From the IMG/VR virus record IMGVR_UViG_2602041549_000006, positions 1-9,199 of that record: a stretch of 9,199 bases of DNA; one strand, given 5' to 3'. Position numbers and translations under genes: made by a program. Under the pieces are notes generated by a model. The model searched no databases. It was not told the DNA's origin and was given only the letters and a program-made list of their open reading frames with translations. Position 1 is the stretch's first letter; every line of letters starts with the position of its first letter. Below, in pieces: positions 1 through 9,199 of the stretch. This stretch comes from a virus. Taxonomy: Duplodnaviria > Heunggongvirae > Uroviricota > Caudoviricetes.

Positions 1-107
1 GATTCAGGGGGCCAGTCTAGAACATGATTCGCTTATCCCAGTAGTCATTACACAGGCGATACTCTTCCGTTTTCTCACCTGACTTCATCTGGTCGAAATA
101 TTCACCG

Positions 108-410
108 TTAACTGCCAGTTGAAGGTTGGCCACGACCTTCCTCCTTTGGCTTGTGAATTTGTATCGTCATGCCGCTTTGAGTGGTGACTACAATGACAGA
201 ACCAGGCTGAAGGCTGTTAAGATTGAATGCTTCGTAAAACGAATCCAATGCCAGTGCTTTTTTATTCTTTCGGTTCCACCAACGCCATCCCTTGCTACAG
301 GCTACATCGACAATCCACTGTACACTCCTGTAAGCCATATAAAACCAGATGAGCAAAACCTGAAGGAATGCTATCCAGTCAATAATCGTATATTTCGCGA
401 AGGAGTCCAT
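108..410 (-). CDS. Small hypothetical protein (about 100 aa) with one strongly hydrophobic N-terminal segment (IIDWIAFLQVLLIWFYMAY); probable small membrane protein
   Basis: ORF 108..413 in the track begins with GTG at 413; the ATG at 410-408 is preceded by a strong SD (AGGAGGTGA) and overlaps the upstream stop as TGATG. No recognisable domain. Confidence 0.45.
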   Translation of the reverse strand: MDSFAKYTIIDWIAFLQVLLIWFYMAYRSVQWIVDVACSKGWRWWNRKNKKALALDSFYEAFNLNSLQPGSVIVVTTQSGMTIQIHKPKEEGRGQPSTGS

Positions 411-919
411 CACTTCACCTCCTGCTGCGGTGCTGCTGGCATTTCACGCCAGTGCGTAACTGAGTGCGGATCCGGATATTCGGTGCCATCATCCCAGCGA
501 TTGCCATTCCACATTGCAGACCACATCTCACCGTCTTCATACATGACCATTACCGGAATTAACTTATCCGGCATTCGCTCACTACAGCTTATCCAACCAT
601 CCGGAGTTGCCGGAGAATTGCCATTTACCAAGTCAGCTCGAACATATAGCGTGTCATCATGGTGCTGATTGTGGCTGCACCACGTTAATTCGCTTAACTC
701 GCCATCTTCTGGCCATACTCCAGCCGTTTGCAGCCAGATATGGGCTGGCGCATCTTGGCAAGGTGTATTAACTGGCAACTTGTAAGTTTGGCTTACAGGT
801 TCTGCTCCCAGTGATGCCAGTGCAATCCGTGCCACTTCCATTTGTTCGCCACGGGTAAGCCCGTTATCAAGCGGATTTTTAATGGATAATTCAATACGTT
901 CTTTGGTAATAGTGGTCAT
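410..919 (-). CDS. Phage accessory protein, DUF551-like C-terminal region (169 aa)
   Basis: ATG at 919-917 with AAGGA upstream. The C-terminal stretch GWISCSERMPD...THWREMPAAP resembles the DUF551 pattern common in enterobacterial prophage early-left regions (recalled from memory). Stop overlaps the next start. Confidence 0.55.
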   Translation of the reverse strand: MTTITKERIELSIKNPLDNGLTRGEQMEVARIALASLGAEPVSQTYKLPVNTPCQDAPAHIWLQTAGVWPEDGELSELTWCSHNQHHDDTLYVRADLVNGNSPATPDGWISCSERMPDKLIPVMVMYEDGEMWSAMWNGNRWDDGTEYPDPHSVTHWREMPAAPQQEVK

Positions 920-1431
920 GCCGCGTTTCCTTCTTTCTTATTAACAATTACACCGTCATATATTTCATTAAGGTGCCCTCTCAACTCCATACGCCTTAAT
1001 GCAAATAACATGTAATCGCATTCAACCTGCTTATTTCCAGTAAATGGCTTATCGTCAGGATTACCCCAACAGCAATTACCCTTGGGCCACCCATGTACTT
1101 TCCGTACTCTTCCGTTAACAACGTGAAGTAATCCCCAGCCGGGAGGTAAATCCTCAACTGAAATAATTCCCGGCTCACTAATAAAGAATCGCCAGTCGCC
1201 CATTCCAAGAGATGGATTTTTACGAAAACGCTTTTTTCTATCTGCCAACAAGTCAGCACGAGAACACTTCGCCTCTATCAGGCATGATGCTGAATTTCTG
1301 AATCCCATAGCATCTGGCTGTTCTCCGGTACTGGTTACAGCTATAAAGCGGTCATGAAAACAAACCTTGAACCCATTGCGCTTAAGGAACTTATACGCAA
1401 TCTGACAGAGTTCGCGGTGTGTTAACGCCAT
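916..1431 (-). CDS. Hypothetical protein (171 aa) with a PD-x12-ExK arrangement (PDAMGF ... LIEAK); possible PD-(D/E)XK-fold nuclease
   Basis: Track ORF 916..1767 overlaps the upstream gene; the internal ATG at 1431-1429 has an AAGGAG SD and sits 1 nt after the upstream TGA stop. The motif was read directly from the translation; the fold assignment is inference. Confidence 0.5.
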   Translation of the reverse strand: MALTHRELCQIAYKFLKRNGFKVCFHDRFIAVTSTGEQPDAMGFRNSASCLIEAKCSRADLLADRKKRFRKNPSLGMGDWRFFISEPGIISVEDLPPGWGLLHVVNGRVRKVHGWPKGNCCWGNPDDKPFTGNKQVECDYMLFALRRMELRGHLNEIYDGVIVNKKEGNAA

Positions 1432-1432
1432 A

Positions 1433-2053
1433 TCACTCTCCTTTGATGCGAATGCCAGCTGCGCTTGCTGATTCTTCATATGCGCGTTTAGCAGCGTTAA
1501 GGATTGCTGCCAGTGGCGTATAGCCGCCATCCATTCGGATTGTGTTGTGGATGCCAGCCATTGTGTCGCGCAATTTGCTGTGGCTAGCAGACAGTTCTGC
1601 AATGCGCTTCTCTGCGGCTTCCAGCTTCTCGCGCATATCGTCAACGTACTCGACCAGAGATCCGCCAGCAGGAATTTCGCATTCCTCGACCAGTTGGAAG
1701 TAGATATCAGCTGCGGCCCGTGTGTTGCTATGCCTAGCGTCGCCCATCTCACCTTCACGAAGAGCATCGCGTTCGGCGGTAAGATTGGCTATTTTGCTGT
1801 CTTTGCCTTCCAGCTCAACGCGCAGCCTCCCTACCGTTAGCGCAATATCCTCGTTCTCCTGATCGCGGCTTTTGATGTATTGCAGGTTTCTTTCCCGTTC
1901 ATCCAACAATGCCAGCGCGATATCTGGCGAAAAGTGCTTCATAAAATCGTTAAGCGCATTAATTCGCTGATCGAAAGGCATTACAGGTGCTTCACCAGCA
2001 ATTTTTGTTTTTTCAGCGATTTCACGAAGCTTTTGATAATCAATCTTGCTCAT
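1433..2053 (-). CDS. Ead/Ea22-like phage protein (206 aa) with a coiled-coil segment
   Basis: The N-terminus MSKIDYQKLREIAEK matches the typical start of Ead/Ea22-like prophage proteins (recalled). AAGGAG SD present; ATGA overlap with the upstream gene's stop. Confidence 0.6.
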   Translation of the reverse strand: MSKIDYQKLREIAEKTKIAGEAPVMPFDQRINALNDFMKHFSPDIALALLDERERNLQYIKSRDQENEDIALTVGRLRVELEGKDSKIANLTAERDALREGEMGDARHSNTRAAADIYFQLVEECEIPAGGSLVEYVDDMREKLEAAEKRIAELSASHSKLRDTMAGIHNTIRMDGGYTPLAAILNAAKRAYEESASAAGIRIKGE

Positions 2054-2889
2054 TGGATGACTCCTTTACGAAGCTGTTCGGCGATATCTTCGAGAACGCC
2101 ATCAGAGAATGAACGGTCAAAATCGCCTTCCGGCGCATTAGCCATAAACTCAGTAGAGGTAAGAATCATCCGGGCAATATCCGCGGCGTTCTTCGCAGTA
2201 TCATCAATAAAACCAGCTTCCCAGGCAGCCAGCATTCTGTTCGCCACAAAGTAAGCGCCCTCCTTGCGTGCTTCAGTCTTCACTTCAGCCAGGAAAGCAT
2301 CGGTGGCTGGGGTGTCTGATTGCAGAGACTTTGCGCGATAGTCATTCCACCCTCTTGCATACATGGGATTAACTTGCACTCCATCTTTTACGCAATATGC
2401 CTGCCCTCCACGGTTGATAACCTTGATTTCGTCCATAGCGCCAGACTTCATCCCCGCATTCTCCGCTGCCAGCTCCGCGCACTTGGCCTCAAGAGCGGCA
2501 ACCACTTCCTGATGGTCTTTGTACTTAACGTATGAGCCGGAGATGTCATCACCTTCGGTGTTTAGCCATGCGTCATTGCAATTCACTGCGTAGGTTCTGA
2601 TGCTCTCCCGCCTATGACAGACGCCAGGCCAGTCAATAAAGTATCCGCATTCCTTCTCAGATTGCTTAAGCGATGTATTTTCAGCAGCCATCTTCGCGCA
2701 TTTAGCCTCAAGGTTATCAATCGTGATTCCAGCAGAACGACACTCCCGCAACGCCGTTTCCAGTTTTGATTCAAGTTCACCGAACTTACGGACAAGATAT
2801 TCAGCGTTTGTTTCGTTAACCTTTAAATCACTTGGGATGCATTTACCTTTCAGAAAACCATCCATCTCAATTAGTGACATTTGTTTCAT
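2050..2889 (-). CDS. Coiled-coil phage protein with an internal tandem duplication (Ea22-like region); start ambiguous
   Basis: Long minus-strand ORF. The track start at 2907 is GTG with no SD; the ATG at 2889 has GGAG upstream, so either could be real. The motif LEAKCAxxAAEN occurs twice in the protein and is visible as a DNA repeat (2476-2495 versus 2697-2715). Confidence 0.5.
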   Translation of the reverse strand: MKQMSLIEMDGFLKGKCIPSDLKVNETNAEYLVRKFGELESKLETALRECRSAGITIDNLEAKCAKMAAENTSLKQSEKECGYFIDWPGVCHRRESIRTYAVNCNDAWLNTEGDDISGSYVKYKDHQEVVAALEAKCAELAAENAGMKSGAMDEIKVINRGGQAYCVKDGVQVNPMYARGWNDYRAKSLQSDTPATDAFLAEVKTEARKEGAYFVANRMLAAWEAGFIDDTAKNAADIARMILTSTEFMANAPEGDFDRSFSDGVLEDIAEQLRKGVIQ

Positions 2890-2983
2890 TTCTTCCCACT
2901 CCGCCACATCGCATTCAGATATTTGTTGTCATTAACAGAACCGAAACTCTTTCTCTTAAGCAAGTCCTCTCATGGTAAATTCC

Positions 2984-3277
2984 TCAGTCATTACTGATAG
3001 CGCCATAACGTGAGCGGTAATTACGCAGGCGCGGGTCAATTTCAGGGAAGTGGGTATATGTGGCTTTGCGGAATGGTCGGATTGATGTCTGGTAAATTCG
3101 CTCGCGTTCTTCTTTCTCTGCAAGCCATATACAATGGCGAAATTCCTTTTCCTCTTTCGTTTCCTGCGGTATCGACATTATCAGGTTGTAGTTTTTCCTG
3201 AATTTATCCAGCACCTCCGATACGGAATTGCCGGAACATCGGCGCGCGTCATCCGCACCATACAGAGGCGCTGGCAT
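2984..3277 (-). CDS. Hypothetical small phage protein (97 aa)
   Basis: ATG at 3277-3275 preceded by an AGGAG SD; same orientation and tight spacing with neighbouring genes. No recognisable domain. Confidence 0.5.
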   Translation of the reverse strand: MPAPLYGADDARRCSGNSVSEVLDKFRKNYNLIMSIPQETKEEKEFRHCIWLAEKEERERIYQTSIRPFRKATYTHFPEIDPRLRNYRSRYGAISND

Positions 3278-3293
3278 GGTTTTCTCCTGTTGA

Positions 3294-3842
3294 TTATTTA
3301 GCTAACTTTTTCCAGATCGCTGAAACGTATTTGGCTTGGTGAATGGCATCATCAAGCGCGTTGTGGCGAGTTCCTTTGAATGGCATATCTCGCTTAGGGT
3401 CGAATCCTATTACCTTCCCAAGTTCGACGATTGTTCTTACGTCGCGGTCATTCCACCACTGCCACGGAACTGGCTGCCCTGTCAGCGAATAACTGTTTCG
3501 GAGAATAACGCAGTCAAATGATGCTCCATTCCCCCAAACCTGAACGAATTTGTGGTTAGCGTTCTTTATGATGAATTCAGATAACCATGAAAGAGCCGTT
3601 GAAAGCTCCTGAGTGTTGCTGGTTAGCGATTTTCTGGCTTCTTCACTCTGTTCCAGCCACCATAAAATCGTTGAAGCGTCAGGACGCGCTCGATATCGCA
3701 TTGATGACTCAAGCGAGATATTTACCGAGAACTCTTCTCCTGTTTCTCCGGTATTCGGGTCAAAGAATACCGCCCCAATAGAAATAACTGGCGCGTATGG
3801 CCCGTTGCCCATTGTTTCAAGGTCAACCATCAAGTGATTCAT
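3294..3842 (-). CDS. 3'-5' exonuclease, DEDD(h)/DnaQ-like fold (182 aa)
   Basis: N-terminal MVDLETMG (Exo I motif, D-x-E) and C-terminal HNALDDA (Exo III motif, H-x4-D) read from the translation. AAGGA SD upstream of the ATG at 3842. Confidence 0.7.
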   Translation of the reverse strand: MNHLMVDLETMGNGPYAPVISIGAVFFDPNTGETGEEFSVNISLESSMRYRARPDASTILWWLEQSEEARKSLTSNTQELSTALSWLSEFIIKNANHKFVQVWGNGASFDCVILRNSYSLTGQPVPWQWWNDRDVRTIVELGKVIGFDPKRDMPFKGTRHNALDDAIHQAKYVSAIWKKLAK

Positions 3843-3850
3843 GTAAGTCC

Positions 3851-4330
3851 TTAAATTGCGTGAATAGCGTGACGAGGGAAGGGGAGAGTTACTGGCTCCT
3901 CGTCTGGGTAGATAGGTTTGTTATGTTTGTGCCACTCGACATGACATGACTTGCAGAGCCACATCACATCGGTTGGTTTGCTGTAGTCGCAGTGGTGCGC
4001 CTGTGGTTTACATTCTGATCCGCAGCACTCACATTGTGGTGGTCGGATTAGCTTACCGTCGCGCAAAAAATTACCCACAATGATGTGGGCTTTTCTTTTC
4101 CATGGGTTGCTCTGAATGAACCGCTTTTTGGCTGCGTTACACCGTTCTCTTCCGCGTTCCGATGATTGATATTCTCTCCTTGCTGATACTCGATGTGGCA
4201 ATCCAGCGCGTTCTTTGTCGTATTCAGCCAGGCAAGCCCGGCAAGCGGCAGTTAATCCATCTCTGGATGCTCTTCTGATTTGAAAGTCCCTTTCTTCCTT
4301 ATGTTGATGGCATCTTGAGCAGATTTTCAT
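3851..4330 (-). CDS. HNH endonuclease (159 aa), zinc-binding, free-standing
   Basis: C-terminal QCECCG ... AHHCDYSKP ... WLCKSCHVEWH gives the HNH catalytic His pair plus Cys4-type metal ligands; additional CxxC pairs at the N-terminus. AGGAG SD upstream. Confidence 0.7.
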   Translation of the reverse strand: MKICSRCHQHKEERDFQIRRASRDGLTAACRACLAEYDKERAGLPHRVSARREYQSSERGRERCNAAKKRFIQSNPWKRKAHIIVGNFLRDGKLIRPPQCECCGSECKPQAHHCDYSKPTDVMWLCKSCHVEWHKHNKPIYPDEEPVTLPFPRHAIHAI

Positions 4331-4339
4331 ATTCAGCTC

Positions 4340-4813
4340 CTAGAACGGAATATCCGAATCGTCGAAGTTCATAGGTGGTTCGCTGTGATTCCCATGCTGC
4401 TGAGATTGCTGTCTTTGTTGCTGGCCGTTATTTCGCTGAGGTGAAGACTGTTCATTGCCTCCTTGCTTGCCACCAAGCATTTGCATGGTTCCACCAACGC
4501 CTACGATAACTTCGGTAGTGAACCGATCCTGTCCACTTTGATCCTGCCATTTTCTTGTCCGCAATTTGCCTTCAAGATAAACCTCTGAGCCTTTCCGCAG
4601 ATACTCGCTGGCAATTTCTGCCAGTTTCCCGCTCATTACCACACGGTGCCACTCCGTCTGCTCCTTTTGCTCTCCAGTTTGCTTATCACGCCATTGTTCT
4701 GACGTAGCAACTGTAAGGTTTGCAAATGCCGTTCCTGATGGTGAATATCTGATTTCTGGATCATGCCCAAGGCGACCAATAATGATCACCTTATTTACGC
4801 CTCTGCTTGCCAT
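4340..4813 (-). CDS. ssb: Single-stranded DNA-binding protein SSB (157 aa)
   Basis: OB-fold N-terminus ([17 protein letters not shown]...), Gly/Gln-rich linker and the canonical acidic tail DDSDIPF. Confidence 0.9.
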
Positions 4814-5521
4814 TTATGCCGCCTGTTTTAGCTCGTTAACTCTGATGTTCATTACCTGAACGCATTTAGCCTGCGCATCCTCATTGCCAGCCATTAATTG
4901 CCAGTCACGCTGATAACGCTCTATGAGTTTTTTCTTGTCAGTTTCTGTTGATGCATAATCGCTGAAGTCTTTCAGGATTTGTTCGCAGTCAACCGATGGA
5001 GATTTCTGGTTGGTATTTTCTGGTGATGGTTTGTTATCTGATGCTGGGATTGCCCATCCCGGCAGCGATGGAGGGAGCCAGTAAAATCCTGTTCCATCCT
5101 TCAGTTTTGCCCTGTGCCACCCCTGCTTTTTATCGAGAGATGTTTGTGCGAAACCTTCCTCAAGGTTATACAGATACCGACCGATTCCCCATTGAACGGC
5201 AGCACGCTTCATTGCACCGGAACGACCACCTTTGACGGCTTCTACCTGCGTGTTTTCAGCAGCATCCCATTTGGTTACCCATTCGGAATCAATCTTGATT
5301 GATATGCCGCATTCAACTCCGCCGTTGTTGGGAATATCGCGGTATTCATTGCGCCATCCTGCTTTGCCGCAAACATCGTCCAGGCGTTTCATGATTGCCC
5401 GGTTCGTGACATAAGCCAGCACCATAGCCCACACCTTGCCATCGCGTGTTTTACCGCTTTGCTGTATTCGCCATTCGATATCTTCAGGGCTGAATGGCTC
5501 ATCGAATTTGTTCAAATCCAT
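4814..5521 (-). CDS. Single-strand annealing recombinase, Rad52/Sak-like family (235 aa); functional analogue of lambda Bet / P22 Erf
   Basis: Motifs GWRNEY, GGVECGISI and AVQWGIGRYLY fit Rad52-family annealing proteins (recalled). Sits immediately upstream of ssb, with a GAGGTGA SD. Confidence 0.65.
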   Translation of the reverse strand: MDLNKFDEPFSPEDIEWRIQQSGKTRDGKVWAMVLAYVTNRAIMKRLDDVCGKAGWRNEYRDIPNNGGVECGISIKIDSEWVTKWDAAENTQVEAVKGGRSGAMKRAAVQWGIGRYLYNLEEGFAQTSLDKKQGWHRAKLKDGTGFYWLPPSLPGWAIPASDNKPSPENTNQKSPSVDCEQILKDFSDYASTETDKKKLIERYQRDWQLMAGNEDAQAKCVQVMNIRVNELKQAA

Positions 5522-5620
5522 AATTCACCTCAGAATGGACACGGCCCAAGAAAATAACGCTGATTTAATACTTCGACTCGGGACAAATTAAGGCATACCC
5601 GCATTCCTTCGCGGTCACCA

Positions 5621-5779
5621 TTATGGCGATACCAGAGAGCTTTCTGCGTGTACATGCGTCTCTGTAACTTGCTCTCCTTCACTGTGGTTGCAAGTGACAT
5701 GAATATCTCCTTCGTTACCGATTAATTCTTTCATCTGACGAATGAATTCTTCGTCTGACCATTTATCTGTAAAACTCAT
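5621..5779 (-). CDS. Small protein (52 aa) in the kil position, downstream of and translationally coupled to cIII; function unknown
   Basis: ATG at 5779-5777 overlaps the cIII stop as ATGA. Assignment is by position only; the longer track ORF 5621..5809 would overlap cIII by 34 nt. Confidence 0.35.
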   Translation of the reverse strand: MSFTDKWSDEEFIRQMKELIGNEGDIHVTCNHSEGEQVTETHVHAESSLVSP

Positions 5780-5946
5780 GGACGGCCTTGTTGTTTCAAA
5801 ATATCCCAAAGCTTTTCGAGCAAACTTTTCATTCTTGGTTGTTTAAAGTCTGCTCCGGTTAAAATGTTTTTTCGTGAATGCTGTACCGATAAAATCGGGT
5901 TGAAAGGGCGAACCGATGCCGCCCCTGCAATAGCGAACTGTTGCAT
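5776..5946 (-). CDS. cIII: CIII-like protein (56 aa); regulator that protects CII from FtsH
   Basis: Internal ATG at 5946-5944 with an AAGGAG SD. The protein MQQFAIAGAAS...LLEKLWDILKQQGRP resembles lambda CIII (MQYAIAGW...LIDILNQPGVP) in start, length and C-terminus. The longer track ORF would read through the terminator hairpin. Confidence 0.65.
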   Translation of the reverse strand: MQQFAIAGAASVRPFNPILSVQHSRKNILTGADFKQPRMKSLLEKLWDILKQQGRP

Positions 5947-6011
5947 AGGATGCTCCTTCTGTTTGATTGCATAACGAAAACGCCTCGAGTGAAGCGTTAT
6001 TGGTATGCATA

Positions 6012-6036
6012 TAAAAAAGCCCTCACACTGGAGGGC
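6012..6036 (-). terminator. Intrinsic terminator on the minus strand (tL1-like), downstream of the N plus orf156 unit
   Basis: The minus strand reads GCCCTC-cagtgt-GAGGGC followed by TTTTTTAT: a 6-bp GC stem, 6-nt loop and T6 tract. There is no T-tract on the plus-strand side. Confidence 0.6.
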
Positions 6037-6098
6037 AAAGAAGATTTCCAATAATCAGAACAAGTCGGCTCCTGTTTAGTTACGAGCGACATTGCTCC

Positions 6099-6126
6099 GT
6101 GTATTCACTCGTTGGAATGAATACAC
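6099..6126. repeat. Perfect 9-bp inverted repeat (GTGTATTCA-N10-TGAATACAC) just 3' of orf156
   Basis: Read directly from the sequence; no adjacent U-tract, so not a classical terminator. Confidence 0.5.
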
Positions 6127-6140
6127 AGTGCTTATTCGTA

Positions 6141-6611
6141 CTAATAAAACACCCAGTTTTCTGTTTCTTGGTTGTGTCCAAAGTTATATTCAATACCTGG
6201 TGTTGATGTATCAATATTCTTCATCCCATCAACAAGAGTTGATACAACAGCCAAATCTTGTTTGATTCTCATCAAATGGTATTTCTTCCGGCGCAATAAA
6301 CTTTCAATGGCAAGTTTCTTCGTCGGGAATGCAAAAGATCTTTCTGCATTTTTTGCTACTTTCTTAATTGCATATCTATTTCTCCTTTGTTTCCATTCCT
6401 GTAACCACTGATTTGGTGCTGGTTTAAAATTAACAATCCAATGCGCAGGAACCAACCATGCATAATGCTCTGTCTGATGAAAAGCTATATATTGAAGTGC
6501 GAATATTTTGATTCCATCTTCTTCAACTGTCGCTTGGAATCTCCAGAAAACAGGCATTCCATCATGTTCAGTTTCTGATTCAGGAAAAGGTACGCTCCAT
6601 GATTTTGTCAT
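6141..6611 (-). CDS. Hypothetical protein (156 aa), AT-rich moron in the ral/sieB position directly after N; function unknown
   Basis: ATG at 6611-6609 with SD GAGGTGA overlapping the N stop codon. The segment is visibly AT-rich compared with its flanks. No recognisable domain, no transmembrane segment. Confidence 0.6.
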   Translation of the reverse strand: MTKSWSVPFPESETEHDGMPVFWRFQATVEEDGIKIFALQYIAFHQTEHYAWLVPAHWIVNFKPAPNQWLQEWKQRRNRYAIKKVAKNAERSFAFPTKKLAIESLLRRKKYHLMRIKQDLAVVSTLVDGMKNIDTSTPGIEYNFGHNQETENWVFY

Positions 6612-6619
6612 ATATCACC

Positions 6620-6955
6620 TCAAATAAGTGGTTTGCTGCCTAATTTCATTTTCTGGCGACCAACACAAGTCACACCCATTTCACTGCGTGGCTTGCGGTA
6701 GTAAATACGATTCTGTTTACTCTCGACTTCATCTGCCTTCTTGCAGCGAAGGATTCCGAGTGATATTGCTTTTTCAGAAAGGCTTAAACGCTTTCTTGGG
6801 GCTTCCTGAACAGGTTCCTCACTGTCTGTGCCGAAGATAGAATCAATGATGTTGCAGATGGCATCACGCTCGATAGCCAGCTTTCTGCGCCGCTCATGAC
6901 GGCGAGTTTTGGCATTTCCTGCAAATGTTGATTTCCCGTACACGATTACCGTCAT
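6620..6955 (-). CDS. N: Antitermination protein N (112 aa) with a P22-type arginine-rich motif and a lambda-like C-terminus
   Basis: The N-terminus MTVIVYGKSTFAGNAKTRRHERRRKLAIER matches the P22 N ARM peptide (recalled); the C-terminus YYRKPRSEMGVTCVGRQKMKLGSKPLI parallels the lambda N C-terminus (WYSKPGERGITCSGRQKIKGKSIPLI). ATG at 6955 with AGGA upstream; the track ORF extends to 7039. Confidence 0.85.
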   Translation of the reverse strand: MTVIVYGKSTFAGNAKTRRHERRRKLAIERDAICNIIDSIFGTDSEEPVQEAPRKRLSLSEKAISLGILRCKKADEVESKQNRIYYRKPRSEMGVTCVGRQKMKLGSKPLI

Positions 6956-7074
6956 GATGTTTTCCTCATGTGAAATGGCTTTGGTGGTGATGCGCCAGAT
7001 GCTGATCTTCTGGTTGCTGTCGTTGCAGCTGCAATTCACATCACCGCCAAATCCATCTCGTTTGGTATCTGTTT

Positions 7075-7109
7075 GCGCTTTGTCAGCGCCCCATCGAAGT
7101 TAAAGAGCA
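7075..7109 (-). promoter_or_regulatory. nutL: boxA (TGCTCTTTA) and boxB hairpin (GCGCTGACAAAGCGC)
   Basis: On the minus strand: boxA-like TGCTCTTTA, a 12-nt spacer, then a 4-bp GCGC stem closing a loop that contains GACAA. This matches my recollection of P22 nutL boxB. It lies between the predicted PL and N. Confidence 0.7.
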
Positions 7110-7154
7110 TGCCAATCTGTTCCGTTTGGCTTCCAGCTTCCTGCTGATGGCTAA

Positions 7155-7183
7155 ATAGTACGATGTGTACTTTATTGAGTCAA
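7155..7183 (-). promoter_or_regulatory. PL candidate: -35 TTGACT (7178-7183), 17-bp spacer, -10 TACTAT (7155-7160), overlapped by operator-like palindromes
   Basis: Hexamers read on the minus strand. The 13-bp perfect palindrome TATTGAGTCAATA (7173-7185) overlaps the -35 and AGTAC-N5-GTACT (7157-7171) overlaps the -10/spacer. Confidence 0.5.
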
Positions 7184-7242
7184 TACAAAATGTTCTAAAT
7201 ATAATTAGTTTTTTATAACGCTTTGTATTTAATAGGTTTATA

Positions 7243-7278
7243 TTTTGGAAAAAGAAAACCCGACGCTAAGGTCGGGTT
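7243..7278 (-). terminator. Intrinsic terminator downstream of cI (weaker on the plus strand)
   Basis: 8-bp stem AACCCGAC/GTCGGGTT with a 6-nt loop; on the minus strand it is followed by TTCTTTTTCC, on the plus strand by ATTGTTGTGTATTTT. Confidence 0.6.
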
Positions 7279-7308
7279 ATTGTTGTGTATTTTAGAGTTG
7301 TGAGGCTG

Positions 7309-7968
7309 TTAACTAAATGTCTCTTCAGGCCACTGGCTGGCGATAACTTTCCCTACTACGGAACAGCTATCATTGCATGGAATCATTGGATATTGCGGGT
7401 TTAGTGGCTGTAGGAACACCTGACCGCTATCCCTGATCAGTTTCTTGAAGGTAAACTCATCACCTCCAAGTCTGGCTATGCAAAAATCACCGGGCTCAAT
7501 AGCCTGCTCAGGGTCAACAAGAATTAACATCCCGTCAGGAAAGCTTGGCTTGGATCCTGTTGGCGCGGTCATGGAATTACCTTCAACCTCAAGCCAGAAT
7601 GCAGAATCACTGGCTTTTTTGGTTGTGCTTACCCATCTCTCCGCATCACCTTTGGTAAAGGTTCTAAGCTCAGGCGAGAACATCCCGGCCTGAACATGAG
7701 AAAAAACAGGGTACTCATATTGTTTTTTAACGGGGGCAGATGAGTATTCGCCAACAGGTGAAAATGTACCGTCGTGGTTGAATGAGACGTTATCAATACC
7801 AAGGTATTTAAACACCACACCAATCTCGTCAAGAGATGGATGACGAGATCCGCGCAACCAGTGACCAATTCCACCCTGCGTCATACCAAGCTCTTCAGCT
7901 AACTTCTCTTGAGTTATGCCGAGTTCTTTCATTCTGGATCTAGCCAGTTCATACCATTTCATTTTCAT
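7309..7968 (-). CDS. cI: CI-type prophage repressor (219 aa): non-lambda N-terminal HTH domain fused to a lambda-cI-like LexA/S24 C-terminal domain
   Basis: The C-terminal about 130 aa ([19 protein letters not shown] ... [12 protein letters not shown]) is near-identical to lambda cI as I recall it, including the Ala-Gly cleavage site and the Ser and Lys of the catalytic dyad; the N-terminal about 85 aa is different. ATG at 7968-7966 with an AAGGA SD; the track ORF extends to 8043. Confidence 0.9.
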
Positions 7969-8024
7969 ATCCTTATTATTACGCTCTGTACTAAAACCAT
8001 CCATGCACAAGATGTATTTTTTGT

Positions 8025-8053
8025 TTGCATTCCAAAAGTACATATCGTATTAT
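8025..8053 (+). promoter_or_regulatory. PR candidate: -35 TTGCAT (8025-8030), 17 bp, -10 TATTAT (8048-8053), inside the OR region 7969-8079
   Basis: Best sigma70-like match on the plus strand upstream of cro; SD GGAGGG at 8071-8076. Operator half-sites could not be defined confidently; AGTACATATCGTATT (8036-8050) and ATTACGCTCTGTACT (7979-7993) resemble the OL element. Confidence 0.4.
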
Positions 8054-8079
8054 TGTTTCATGATTACTATGGAGGGCAT

Positions 8080-8295
8080 ATGAGCAACCTACGAAAATAT
8101 CGAGAGTCACTGAATATCTCTCAAACAACACTTGCTAAGGCGGTTGGATGCACACAGGGAGCTATCGGACATTGGGAATCTGGTCGTCGCTTCCCAGACC
8201 TTAAAACATGCCGTGCTCTTGTTGCGTGCCTAAACAAGTTAGGCGCAAAAGTCAGTCTTGATGACGTGTTCCCACCGGAACACAAAGCCGCTTAA
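8080..8295 (+). CDS. cro: Cro-like HTH repressor (71 aa)
   Basis: Divergent from cI across a 111-bp operator region; ATG at 8080 with a GGAGGG SD; HTH segment QTTLAKAVGCTQGAIGHWESG. The track ORF 7909..8295 is an upstream extension without an SD. Confidence 0.8.
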   Translation: MSNLRKYRESLNISQTTLAKAVGCTQGAIGHWESGRRFPDLKTCRALVACLNKLGAKVSLDDVFPPEHKAA

Positions 8296-8305
8296 TAAGC
8301 GGATC

Positions 8306-8340
8306 CGCTCTTTATCAATCTGCACCGCCGACAACGCGGT
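8306..8340 (+). promoter_or_regulatory. nutR: boxA (CGCTCTTTA, 8306-8314) and boxB hairpin (ACCGC-cGACAAc-GCGGT, 8324-8340)
   Basis: Consensus boxA followed 9 nt later by a 5-bp stem whose loop contains GACAA, the same loop core as the nutL boxB, as expected for a P22-type N. Confidence 0.7.
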
Positions 8341-8352
8341 AACTAATTAAGC

Positions 8353-8385
8353 ACTCATCGAAAGATGAGTATTAGTGATTATTTA
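8353..8385 (+). terminator. tR1-position hairpin (ACTCATC-GAAA-GATGAGT) followed by a weakly T-rich tract
   Basis: 7-bp stem with a GAAA tetraloop between nutR and cII; the downstream tract ATTAGTGATTATTTA is only moderately U-rich, so this may be a weak or N-suppressible terminator. Confidence 0.35.
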
Positions 8386-8394
8386 CCTATGGAA

Positions 8395-8437
8395 ATAGTA
8401 AGAAATGGAACAAACAAGTTACAGCAAACTATCACAG
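8395..8437 (-). promoter_or_regulatory. PRE-like CII-dependent promoter: TTGC-N6-TTGT box (8424-8437) and -10 TACTAT (8395-8400)
   Basis: On the minus strand TTGCtgtaacTTGT lies at codons 7-11 of cII, analogous to the lambda TTGC-N6-TTGC site in early cII codons; a 17-bp spacer then TACTAT. Confidence 0.4.
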
Positions 8438-8701
8438 CGCGATGTTGATCGCGCAGAAACAGATTTACTTATCAACCTGTCAACGCTTACACAGCGCGGT
8501 CTGGCAAAGATGATTGGCTGTCATGAATCGAAGATAAGCAGAACGGACTGGAGATTTATTGCTTCGGTCTTGTGTGCTTTCGGAATGGCATCAGACATCA
8601 GTCCGATTAGCAGGGCTTTTAAGTATGCGCTTGATGGACTCACCAATAAAAAACGCCCGGCGGCAACCGAGCGTTCTTATCAAATACAAATGGAATTTTA
8701 A
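8405..8701 (+). CDS. cII: CII transcriptional activator (98 aa)
   Basis: The C-terminus LTNKKRPAATERSYQIQMEF is nearly identical to lambda CII (ILTNKKRPAATERSEQIQMEF, recalled); length and position after cro and nutR fit. Confidence 0.9.
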   Translation: MEQTSYSKLSQRDVDRAETDLLINLSTLTQRGLAKMIGCHESKISRTDWRFIASVLCAFGMASDISPISRAFKYALDGLTNKKRPAATERSYQIQMEF

Positions 8702-8712
8702 CAACATCCAGC
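8646..8712 (-). ncRNA. OOP-like antisense RNA overlapping the 3' end of cII (terminator 8645-8673, putative -10 TATAAT at 8719-8724)
   Basis: On the minus strand: stem CGCUCGG/CCGGGCG (one G-U pair), loop UUGCCG, then UUUUUUAUU; matches my recollection of the lambda oop terminator. A TATAAT hexamer lies about 70 nt upstream on the minus strand. The 5' end is inferred. Confidence 0.5.
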
Positions 8713-8723
8713 GAGGTAATTAT

Positions 8724-8867
8724 ATGCGAAAAACGCAGGAAAATAAACGCGTTAATCACCGAAAAGATGTGCTACGTGACCAGTTTTATCAGGGGGTTAA
8801 TCCAGCAATAGCTGTGCCACTGAGAGAAATACTTAACAGGTACAAAACTTCGGAGAAGTCAAAATGA
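8724..8867 (+). CDS. Small hypothetical basic protein (47 aa) between cII and the replication gene
   Basis: ATG at 8724 with a GAGGT SD; stop overlaps the next start as ATGA. The track ORF 8559..8867 extends upstream into cII in another frame. Confidence 0.4.
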   Translation: MRKTQENKRVNHRKDVLRDQFYQGVNPAIAVPLREILNRYKTSEKSK

Positions 8868-9199
8868 GCATGAATCTTATGGCTAAGGCCATGAATATAA
8901 AGGTTGGCAACCCACTGAGAAAACTGGTTCTGATTAAACTTGCCGATAACGCCAATGATAATGGCGAATGCTGGCCTTCATATCAACATGTCGCTGACCA
9001 GTGTGAGGTGAGCAGATCGACAGTAAAAAGTCACATTAGGGCACTGGAAGAGATGGGGCTTTTGAAAAGGGAATTCAGAAGAAAAGGAGAGCTTAACCAG
9101 TCAAACGTTTTTTATCTGACGCTGGATAATGCACAACAAATCCAACCAGAATCAGGTGGGGCAGGAGCTGCCCGGGGTGGGGCAGGAGCTGCCCGGGGT
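8864..9199 (+). CDS. Replication initiator, O-like, with N-terminal winged-HTH (5' partial, runs off the window end)
   Basis: Open frame from the ATG at 8864 to the window end (112 codons, no stop). The translation MSMNLMAKAMNIKVGNPLRKLVLIKLADNANDNGECWPSYQHVADQCEVSRSTVKSHIRALEEMGLLKR is HTH-like and the gene is in the O position; iteron-like repeats lie inside it. Confidence 0.65.
   Translation, partial: MSMNLMAKAMNIKVGNPLRKLVLIKLADNANDNGECWPSYQHVADQCEVSRSTVKSHIRALEEMGLLKREFRRKGELNQSNVFYLTLDNAQQIQPESGGAGAARGGAGAARG
9155..9199 (+). repeat. Iteron-like direct repeats (putative ori): 21-bp unit GGTGGGGCAGGAGCTGCCCGG, two exact copies plus the start of a third at the window edge
   Basis: Exact tandem copies at 9155-9175 and 9176-9196; each unit contains the dyad GGGCAG-gag-CTGCCC. 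In frame they encode a Gly/Ala-rich linker (GGAGAARG repeated). Confidence 0.6.

Follow-up and report, generated by a model that had tools for sequence, protein, structure and literature searches.

A known and common immunity region of the Nil2 / AP005153 / Dewey type, very probably of an Escherichia coli lambdoid prophage, with a repressor that is a domain chimera relative to lambda

The repressor and operator region of a phage was analysed in a stretch of viral DNA of 9,199 nucleotides (IMG/VR record IMGVR_UViG_2602041549_000006, positions 1 to 9,199), hereafter called the window, which is the early region of a lambdoid prophage. Positions 7309-8295 comprise exactly the repressor gene cI, the intergenic operators and cro, with a gap of 111 bp between the two genes. 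This region is very probably the immunity region of an Escherichia coli lambdoid prophage, belonging to the described Nil2 / AP005153 / Dewey type and organised like the bistable switch of lambda. Compared with lambda, the repressor is chimeric in its domains, and the immunity type is already known and very common. The value of the result lies mainly in correct annotation. The main features, with the helix-turn-helix (HTH) domains named by their Pfam families, are as follows.

7309-7968, minus strand: cI repressor gene, 219 aa from the ATG at 7968
7309-7719, minus strand: lambda-type linker and C-terminal domain of cI, codons 84-219, 94.1% nucleotide identity to lambda
7720-7968, minus strand: non-lambda HTH_3 DNA-binding domain of cI, codons 1-83, Nil2 / phage L / epsilon34 family
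8080-8295, plus strand: cro, 71 aa, HTH_3, all-helical, preceded by GGAGGG

The cI protein matched Pfam HTH_3 at residues 11-58 (E 8.3e-11) and, in its C-terminal part, Peptidase_S24 (PF00717, E 9.6e-29). The cleavage site A94-G95 and the dyad S132/K175, numbered from the ATG at 7968, are present. The protein thus shows the domain and residue pattern of a self-cleaving repressor of the LexA/CI type: HTH and Peptidase_S24 domains, a Ser/Lys dyad, and a linker with an Ala-Gly cleavage site. Its best match in the PDB was the lambda repressor 3bdn (E 7e-97). The C-terminal domain aligned with the lambda repressor structures 3bdn, 8gmu, 2ho0 and 1f39 and was 98% identical to solved structures.

The breakpoint was mapped against the lambda reference NC_001416. 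The blastn alignment covered window positions 7315-7719 and the 3' 405 nt of lambda cI at 94.1% identity, while the 5' part of cI, the operators (OR and OL) and cro gave no match to lambda. A 405-nt match at 94% is not attributable to chance. The 60-nt sliding comparison gave 83-100% identity up to about 7700 and 47-58% thereafter, and the first dense run of mismatches begins at 7720, placing the breakpoint at 7719/7720. The seam falls at Tyr84 (lambda Tyr101) in the interdomain linker, ten residues ahead of the Ala-Gly cleavage site. At the protein level, codons 84-219 are identical to lambda residues 102-237 at 133 of 136 positions (97.8%), and codons 1-83 agree with the lambda N-terminal domain at 19 of 83 (23%). 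An earlier note, made from the sequence alone, had described a C-terminal domain and autocleavage site nearly identical to those of lambda, a DNA-binding domain unlike lambda's and a break near the interdomain linker; the alignments agree with it on all three. RecA-stimulated autocleavage of CI would be predicted from the 97.8% identity of its C-terminal domain to that of lambda.

The same note had called Cro non-lambda, and this also held, as BLASTP gave no alignment between Cro and lambda Cro even at E<=100. Cro is 35% identical to the N-terminal domain of its own cI, with the common motif TQG(A/G)IGHW. It is identical to the Cro of AP005153 at all 71 residues and to that of Dewey at 70 of 71, and the exact protein occurs in NCBI on at least 1000 contigs. 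As a side observation, residues 1-69 matched chain 28tn_A ('lambda repressor-like protein', 82 aa; E 4.5e-17), therefore a close structural template for this Cro type exists.

The distribution of the junction was examined by megablast of window positions 7200-8400 against 50,697 phage records, with records counted at 80% coverage or more. The same junction with its flanks was found in 62 phage records, and the N-terminal domain was at least 95% identical in 63. Phages Dewey (PQ850600), vB_EcoP-683R2 (ON470594) and vB_EcoP-720R6 (ON470605) showed 98.2% nucleotide identity over 7200-8295, that is from OL/PL through cro, and Nil2 (AJ413274), the Stx1-converting phage AP005153, Stx2 II (AP005154), 2851, 1717, YYZ-2008 and the PA series of Stx2a phages showed 93.1% over cI-OR-cro. 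The sliding profiles against AP005153 and Dewey revealed no identity step at the linker. The nucleotide differences of three relatives from the window cI are given below.

Dewey: N-terminal part 1/249 nt, C-terminal part 10/411 nt
E. coli AVS0578: N-terminal part 0/249 nt, C-terminal part 14/411 nt
AP005153: N-terminal part 13/249 nt, C-terminal part 32/411 nt

Among 5426 complete E. coli genomes, 776 (about 1 in 7) carry at least 80% of the block 7309-8295. The segment comprising the N-terminal domain, OR and cro is likewise carried by 776, and from these equal counts the module seems to come with this C-terminal domain in practically every case; they leave no room for the N-terminal/cro module with another C-terminal domain in the E. 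coli genomes counted. The lambda-type C-terminal segment alone is present in 1212 complete E. coli genomes. Four loci sampled among the C-terminal matches comprised one true imm-lambda, two of Nil2 type (92% matches) and one of a third type (76% match). The exact cI, Cro and CII sequences had been deposited in NCBI before, with cI and CII recurring on 26-29 contigs.

Membership in the Nil2 / AP005153 / Dewey type is thus indicated by a full-length cI without an identity step, the same Cro and the same operators. The window differs from imm-lambda in its DNA-binding domain, its Cro and its OL and OR operator sequences, all of which are non-lambda. Compared with Dewey, cI has 11 differences in 660 nt and Cro one in 71 aa, but the flanks are unlike. 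On the left, the similarity to Dewey is lost at about 7136, within the N leader, and on the right at 8295; Dewey has other types of cII and of the N-terminal part of N. The block common to both, about 7136 to exactly 8295, corresponds to the classical immunity module; this is textbook lambdoid mosaicism, in which the module moves as a unit. AP005153 has the same cI architecture and junction, and 7 of 219 CI residues differ, none of them in the recognition motif TQGGIGHW; its OR spacer sequences, in contrast, are only 80-87% identical, and it has extra open reading frames (ORFs) between cI and N. The Nil2 and Shiga toxin (Stx) phage group carries stx, and the window says nothing on stx in this element. 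The repressor shares with lambda the linker and C-terminal domain (97.8%), a tImm-like terminator, three OL and three OR operators, divergent PRM and PR promoters and an OR2 near -42/-43, and differs in its DNA-binding domain (23%), its operator sequence and a Cro of a different fold family. Immunity is predicted to be common to Nil2, the Stx1 phage and Dewey and distinct from that of lambda. Homoimmunity with several Stx-converting phages would be expected, which is relevant to the prediction of superinfection and co-residence in Shiga toxin-producing E. coli, although the idea is not new. A side observation concerns phi458 (OP434518 8696-10842), where the match to 7200-8295 is split in two pieces spanning 2147 bp versus 1096, which implies an insertion of about 1 kb in or beside cI.

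The type has been catalogued before. Nil2 CI is one of eight reference lambdoid repressor types (PMC2903704), and Nil2 has been included among lambdoid sequences (PMC3349717). A survey of 260 Stx-phage CI proteins placed closest to lambda CI a clade I with 61% overall identity (PMC8951638). This is about the value expected from a lambda-type C-terminal half with an unrelated N-terminal part, and clade I may include the Nil2 type.

The operators and promoters of the region were located by motif and promoter scans and by comparison with the AP005153 annotation. The sites are given below.

7157-7171, 7182-7196 and 7215-7229: OL, three operator sites of motif ARTACANNNYGTDNT
7978-7992: OR3, overlapping the PRM -10, by motif and as an AP005153 putative operator
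8004-8018: OR2, centred 43 bp upstream of the predicted PRM start, by motif and as an AP005153 putative operator
8037-8051: OR1, overlapping the PR spacer and -10, by motif and as an AP005153 putative operator
7155-7183, minus strand: PL candidate, TTGACT-17-TACTAT, from the promoter scan, overlapped by OL1 and OL2
8024-8053, plus strand: PR candidate, TTTGCA-18-TATTAT, from the promoter scan
7975-8003, minus strand: PRM candidate, TGGATG (8003-7998)-17-AATAAT (7980-7975), from a relaxed scan
7257-7278, minus strand: intrinsic terminator, a strong hairpin just 3' of cI from the terminator scan, homologous to lambda tImm

The 15-bp operator consensus reads A-R-T-A-C-A-N3-Y-G-T-D-N-T. Over 20 nt, OL1 is 90% complementary to OR1. 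AP005153 carries annotated putative operators at the places of all three OR sites, and the OL region aligns with the AP005153 OL region, for which the annotation likewise gives three putative operators. Between the window and AP005153 the cores of OR1-OR3 differ at central or degenerate positions only. The -35 of the PRM candidate coincides with the -35 annotated in AP005153, and with this candidate transcription would start (+1) at the A of the ATG at 7968, with OR2 at -43. The lambda PRM transcript starts at the cI ATG, and with this start the annotated lambda coordinates put OR2 at -42. The stretch 7251-7286 matches lambda 35799-35834 at 89% identity; this lambda segment takes in the 3' end of rexB (35825-36259) and the sequence just downstream. 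A scan of the whole window against Rfam at the gathering threshold gave no match. It was also observed in 7251-7308 that cI is followed within 30 nt by the tImm-like terminator, with no rexA/rexB between them as lambda has; AP005153 has other ORFs between cI and N, and this slot 3' of cI evidently takes variable cargo.

In the proposed mechanism, CI dimers would bind the three 15-bp operators at OR and the three at OL through the non-lambda HTH_3 domain, and operator-bound CI would repress PR and PL. CI on OR2, centred near -43, would be positioned to activate PRM, and the overlap of OR3 with the PRM -10 would allow negative autoregulation. The lambda-type C-terminal domain would provide dimerisation and pairwise cooperativity, and RecA would stimulate CI to cleave itself at Ala94-Gly95, with Ser132/Lys175 as the catalytic residues. 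Cro, which is paralogous to the DNA-binding domain of CI and has the same recognition-helix motif (TQGxIGHW), would bind the same operators and turn PRM off. The PRM mRNA of cI would probably begin at the ATG at 7968 and be leaderless, and CII-dependent PRE transcripts would have a leader. The model builds on the observed gene content, domain identities, breakpoint, operator motif with its placement, and prevalence. Operator occupancy, promoter starts, cooperativity, cleavage and immunity specificity are expected by analogy with lambda biology and with its 97.8% identical C-terminal domain.

Two other explanations of the region were weighed. The earlier note had proposed a new junction, in which a lambda C-terminal domain was recently fused to a foreign DNA-binding domain to give an unseen specificity. 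In its favour are the sharp nucleotide breakpoint against lambda at 7719/7720 and a higher polymorphism of the C-terminal domain, compared with the N-terminal part, among the closest relatives. The same junction with its flanks is nevertheless present in the 62 phage records and 776 complete genomes, the comparisons with Dewey and AP005153 pass the linker without a step, Cro is 100% identical to AP005153 Cro, and the exact proteins had already been deposited. The proposal fails because the whole cI matches single known phages (Dewey, AP005153) at both domains, the outcome that the earlier note itself had named as decisive against it, and a newly made junction is hardly credible. A decayed remnant in a cryptic prophage, in which cI and cro are retained without a working switch, was considered very unlikely. 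In its favour, the best match in one place in any complete E. coli genome covers at most 58% of the window, therefore the element is heavily mosaic. However, every early gene of the window (N, cIII, cI, cro, cII and the recombination genes) is an intact ORF, and the regulatory sites to be expected are present. Identical cI and cII proteins turn up on 26-29 contigs and identical Cro on at least 1000. The same module is also carried by two phages that exist free, Dewey (a sewage isolate) and vB_EcoP-683R2.

A working immunity switch of the Nil2 / AP005153 / Dewey type is the preferred reading, and the following points weigh against it. The visible stretch is 9 kb and cannot show that the prophage is intact or inducible, which also favours the remnant. 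The operators and promoters are predicted from sequence patterns. Allowing at most one mismatch, motif ARTACANNNYGTDNT gave 12 strand matches against 1.39 expected, nine of them on six sites, all OL or OR, and this count is partly circular because the motif was built from the same sites; independent support comes from their placement on promoters and their likeness to the epsilon34 and L operators. The centre-to-centre spacing is 33 bp for OR1-OR2 and 25 bp for OL1-OL2, compared with about 24 bp in lambda by its annotated coordinates, and because of the 33 bp a lambda-like pairwise cooperativity at OR is not guaranteed. For this repressor type the searchable literature held only catalogue-level mentions and no biochemical work such as footprints, transcription starts or immunity tests.

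The start of cI differs among annotations. The list of ORFs gave a longer mechanical frame enclosing cI on the minus strand (7309-8043, 244 aa), and databases hold a 231-aa form (start 8004) in GenBank/RefSeq or a 217-aa form (start 7962) in some records; the exact 231-aa form is deposited in NCBI as 'LexA family transcriptional regulator [E. coli]'. The full mechanical start at 8043 was rejected, as Dewey and AP005153 have in-frame stops upstream of the M14 equivalent. In the window, Dewey and AP005153 alike, no stop interrupts the cI frame as far back as 8004. The 231-aa start is doubtful because the ATG at 8004 falls within OR2, and because epsilon34 and phage L have in-frame stops shortly upstream, 8 and 17 codons respectively before the homologous first ATG; it also lies upstream of the predicted PRM and of the -35 annotated by the AP005153 depositors. 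Comparison with epsilon34, L and four further relatives points to 7968 as the true start, and the 231-aa form of GenBank/RefSeq (AP005153, PQ850600, NZ_CP124374) is probably 12 codons too long.

The sequence ahead of the first ATG reads GCGTAATAATAAGGAT-ATG-AAA-ATG. The AAGGA at 7970-7974 lies 1 nt from the ATG at 7968, too close for a Shine-Dalgarno (SD) sequence, and 7 nt from the ATG at 7962. In the window, Dewey, AP005153 and five relatives (phage L, epsilon34, Klebsiella ST340-VIM1phi10.1, Vibrio H8 and Proteus Pm34), a -10-like GTAATAAT or GTATAAT lies with its end 6-7 nt ahead of the first ATG. The five relatives lack an SD at this place, and in four of them the stretch between the -10 and the ATG (L ctgcgc, Klebsiella catggct, Vibrio tgttgtt, Proteus gctggt) does not resemble one. 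Because the -10 is conserved at this distance while an SD-like sequence is not, a leaderless cI mRNA is predicted, and it is fairly likely that the PRM transcript starts at the ATG at 7968, as in lambda. The earlier note had given this cI an SD and a leader, unlike lambda's; the conserved -10 and the position of AAGGA argue otherwise. A leadered PRM transcript, with AAGGA serving the ATG at 7962 or the frame beginning at the upstream ATG 8004 (231 aa), and hence an expression unlike lambda's leaderless mode, was judged unlikely though deserving consideration. The 7-nt distance of AAGGA from the ATG at 7962 and the frame open to 8004 in all three sequences favour it, as do the 231 aa annotated by the Prokaryotic Genome Annotation Pipeline (PGAP) and by depositors and the 217 aa of some records. 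The position of ATG 8004 within OR2 and upstream of the AP005153 -35, the stops in epsilon34 and L, and the conservation in six lineages of the -10, but not of an SD-like sequence, are evidence against it.

A leader may nevertheless be used by another transcript. A CII-box candidate for PRE was found inside the 5' end of cII.

8414-8427, minus strand: CII-box candidate (TTGCN6TTGT) for PRE, sole match in the window

As one match stands against 1.59 expected, the candidate is not significant by count and was retained for its position alone, which we take to be where lambda PRE lies; it would make a plausible -35 region for PRE. A transcript from this putative PRE would carry the AAGGA leader and could plausibly use the ATG at 7962. 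The double ATG (MKMKW) recurs in epsilon34 (MKMN), Vibrio H8 and Proteus Pm34.

The history of the two domains was examined through the percentage identities of other repressors to the window cI.

Phage L c2: N-terminal part 47%, C-terminal part 48%
epsilon34 cI: N-terminal part 56%, C-terminal part 79%
Lambda cI: N-terminal part 23%, C-terminal part 98%

The paired identities of L and epsilon34 show that the N-terminal family of the window has had a related C-terminal domain as its partner for a long time, and the lambda N-terminal domain is unrelated to the window/L/epsilon34 family (21-23%). The chimerism is relative, and these identities do not fix the direction of exchange with lambda; the historical chimera may be lambda's own cI rather than the window gene. 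This reading and that of dual starts in cI, leaderless at 7968 from PRM and SD-served at 7962 from PRE, are, taken together, distinctly unlikely. Neither would alter the identity of the element.

The C-terminal segments are roughly equidistant, with 27 (window and lambda), 32 (window and AP005153) and 29 (AP005153 and lambda) differences in 411 nt. In the nearest relatives this segment has 10-14 differences in 411 nt versus 0-1 in 249 nt of the N-terminal part. The variants are patchy; at 7588-7630, for instance, the window sides with lambda and AP005153 and not with Dewey and AVS0578. Such patchiness would fit ongoing homologous exchange within the common C-terminal segment and suggests gene conversion between co-resident prophages sharing the lambda-type C-terminal domain.

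The cI of epsilon34 and the c2 of L, both Salmonella phages, are full-length homologues with operators of the same family and the same -10-to-ATG geometry. The C-terminal domain of L, in contrast, is not of lambda type, and for both phages the identity of the DNA-binding domain is too low to predict common immunity. The C-terminal protease domain of the epsilon34 repressor is about 80% identical to lambda and HK97, its N-terminal portion is about 50% identical to L, VT2-Sa and Nil2, and its proposed operator is WTACRAWWTGTAT (PMC2629481). The site AATACATCTCGTAAT was found upstream of phage L c2. The recognition-helix motif of L c2, TQGAIGHWLNG, is very similar to that of the window, and the upstream L sites AATACATTTCGTACT and AATACATCTCGTAAT fit the window operator consensus; the two immunity types might conceivably recognise each other's operators in part.

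The immunity module is flanked by antitermination and cII functions.

6620-7039: ORF of the N-type antiterminator (N 6620-6958), by Pfam
8405-8701: CII homologue, by Pfam
7075-7108, minus strand: nutL, boxA GCTCTTTAA (7108-7100) and boxB GCGCTGACAAAGCGC (7089-7075)
8306-8340, plus strand: nutR, CGCTCTTTA (8306-8314) and ACCGCCGACAACGCGGT (8324-8340)

The N protein bears the arginine-rich motif GNAKTRRHERRRKLAIERD. This motif and the boxB sequences are presumably a P22-type N/boxB pair, and the antitermination module would therefore be P22-like while the C-terminal domain of the repressor is lambda-like. The cII gene is itself mosaic, being 90-100% identical to AP005153 over 8390-8630, and 100% across 8510-8629. 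It matches lambda cII only in the last 59 nt (8639-8697, 91.5%), its N-terminal part being unlike that of lambda.

The leftward operon spans 400-6611 on the minus strand and contains the following genes.

410-919, minus strand: DUF551 protein
1433-2053, minus strand: Ead/Ea22-like protein
2984-3277, minus strand: P22 Abc2 anti-RecBCD protein
3294-3842, minus strand: Rv2179c-like 3'-5' exonuclease
3851-4330, minus strand: putative endonuclease (phrog_2340; no Pfam family matched)
4340-4813, minus strand: single-stranded DNA-binding protein (SSB)
4814-5521, minus strand: Rad52-family annealase
within 5776-6051, minus strand: cIII
6141-6611, minus strand: conserved protein of unknown function (phrog_1636), between cIII and N

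Two short stretches were also observed. The 10-mer ATCACCGCCA occupies 7040-7049, a part of the N leader immediately 5' of the N ORF; it presumably equals the consensus half-site of the lambda operators and may be a chance occurrence or a relic. Positions 6086-6131 comprise 46 bp that are 100% identical to lambda 34000-34045, upstream of ral, and stand isolated in non-lambda sequence.

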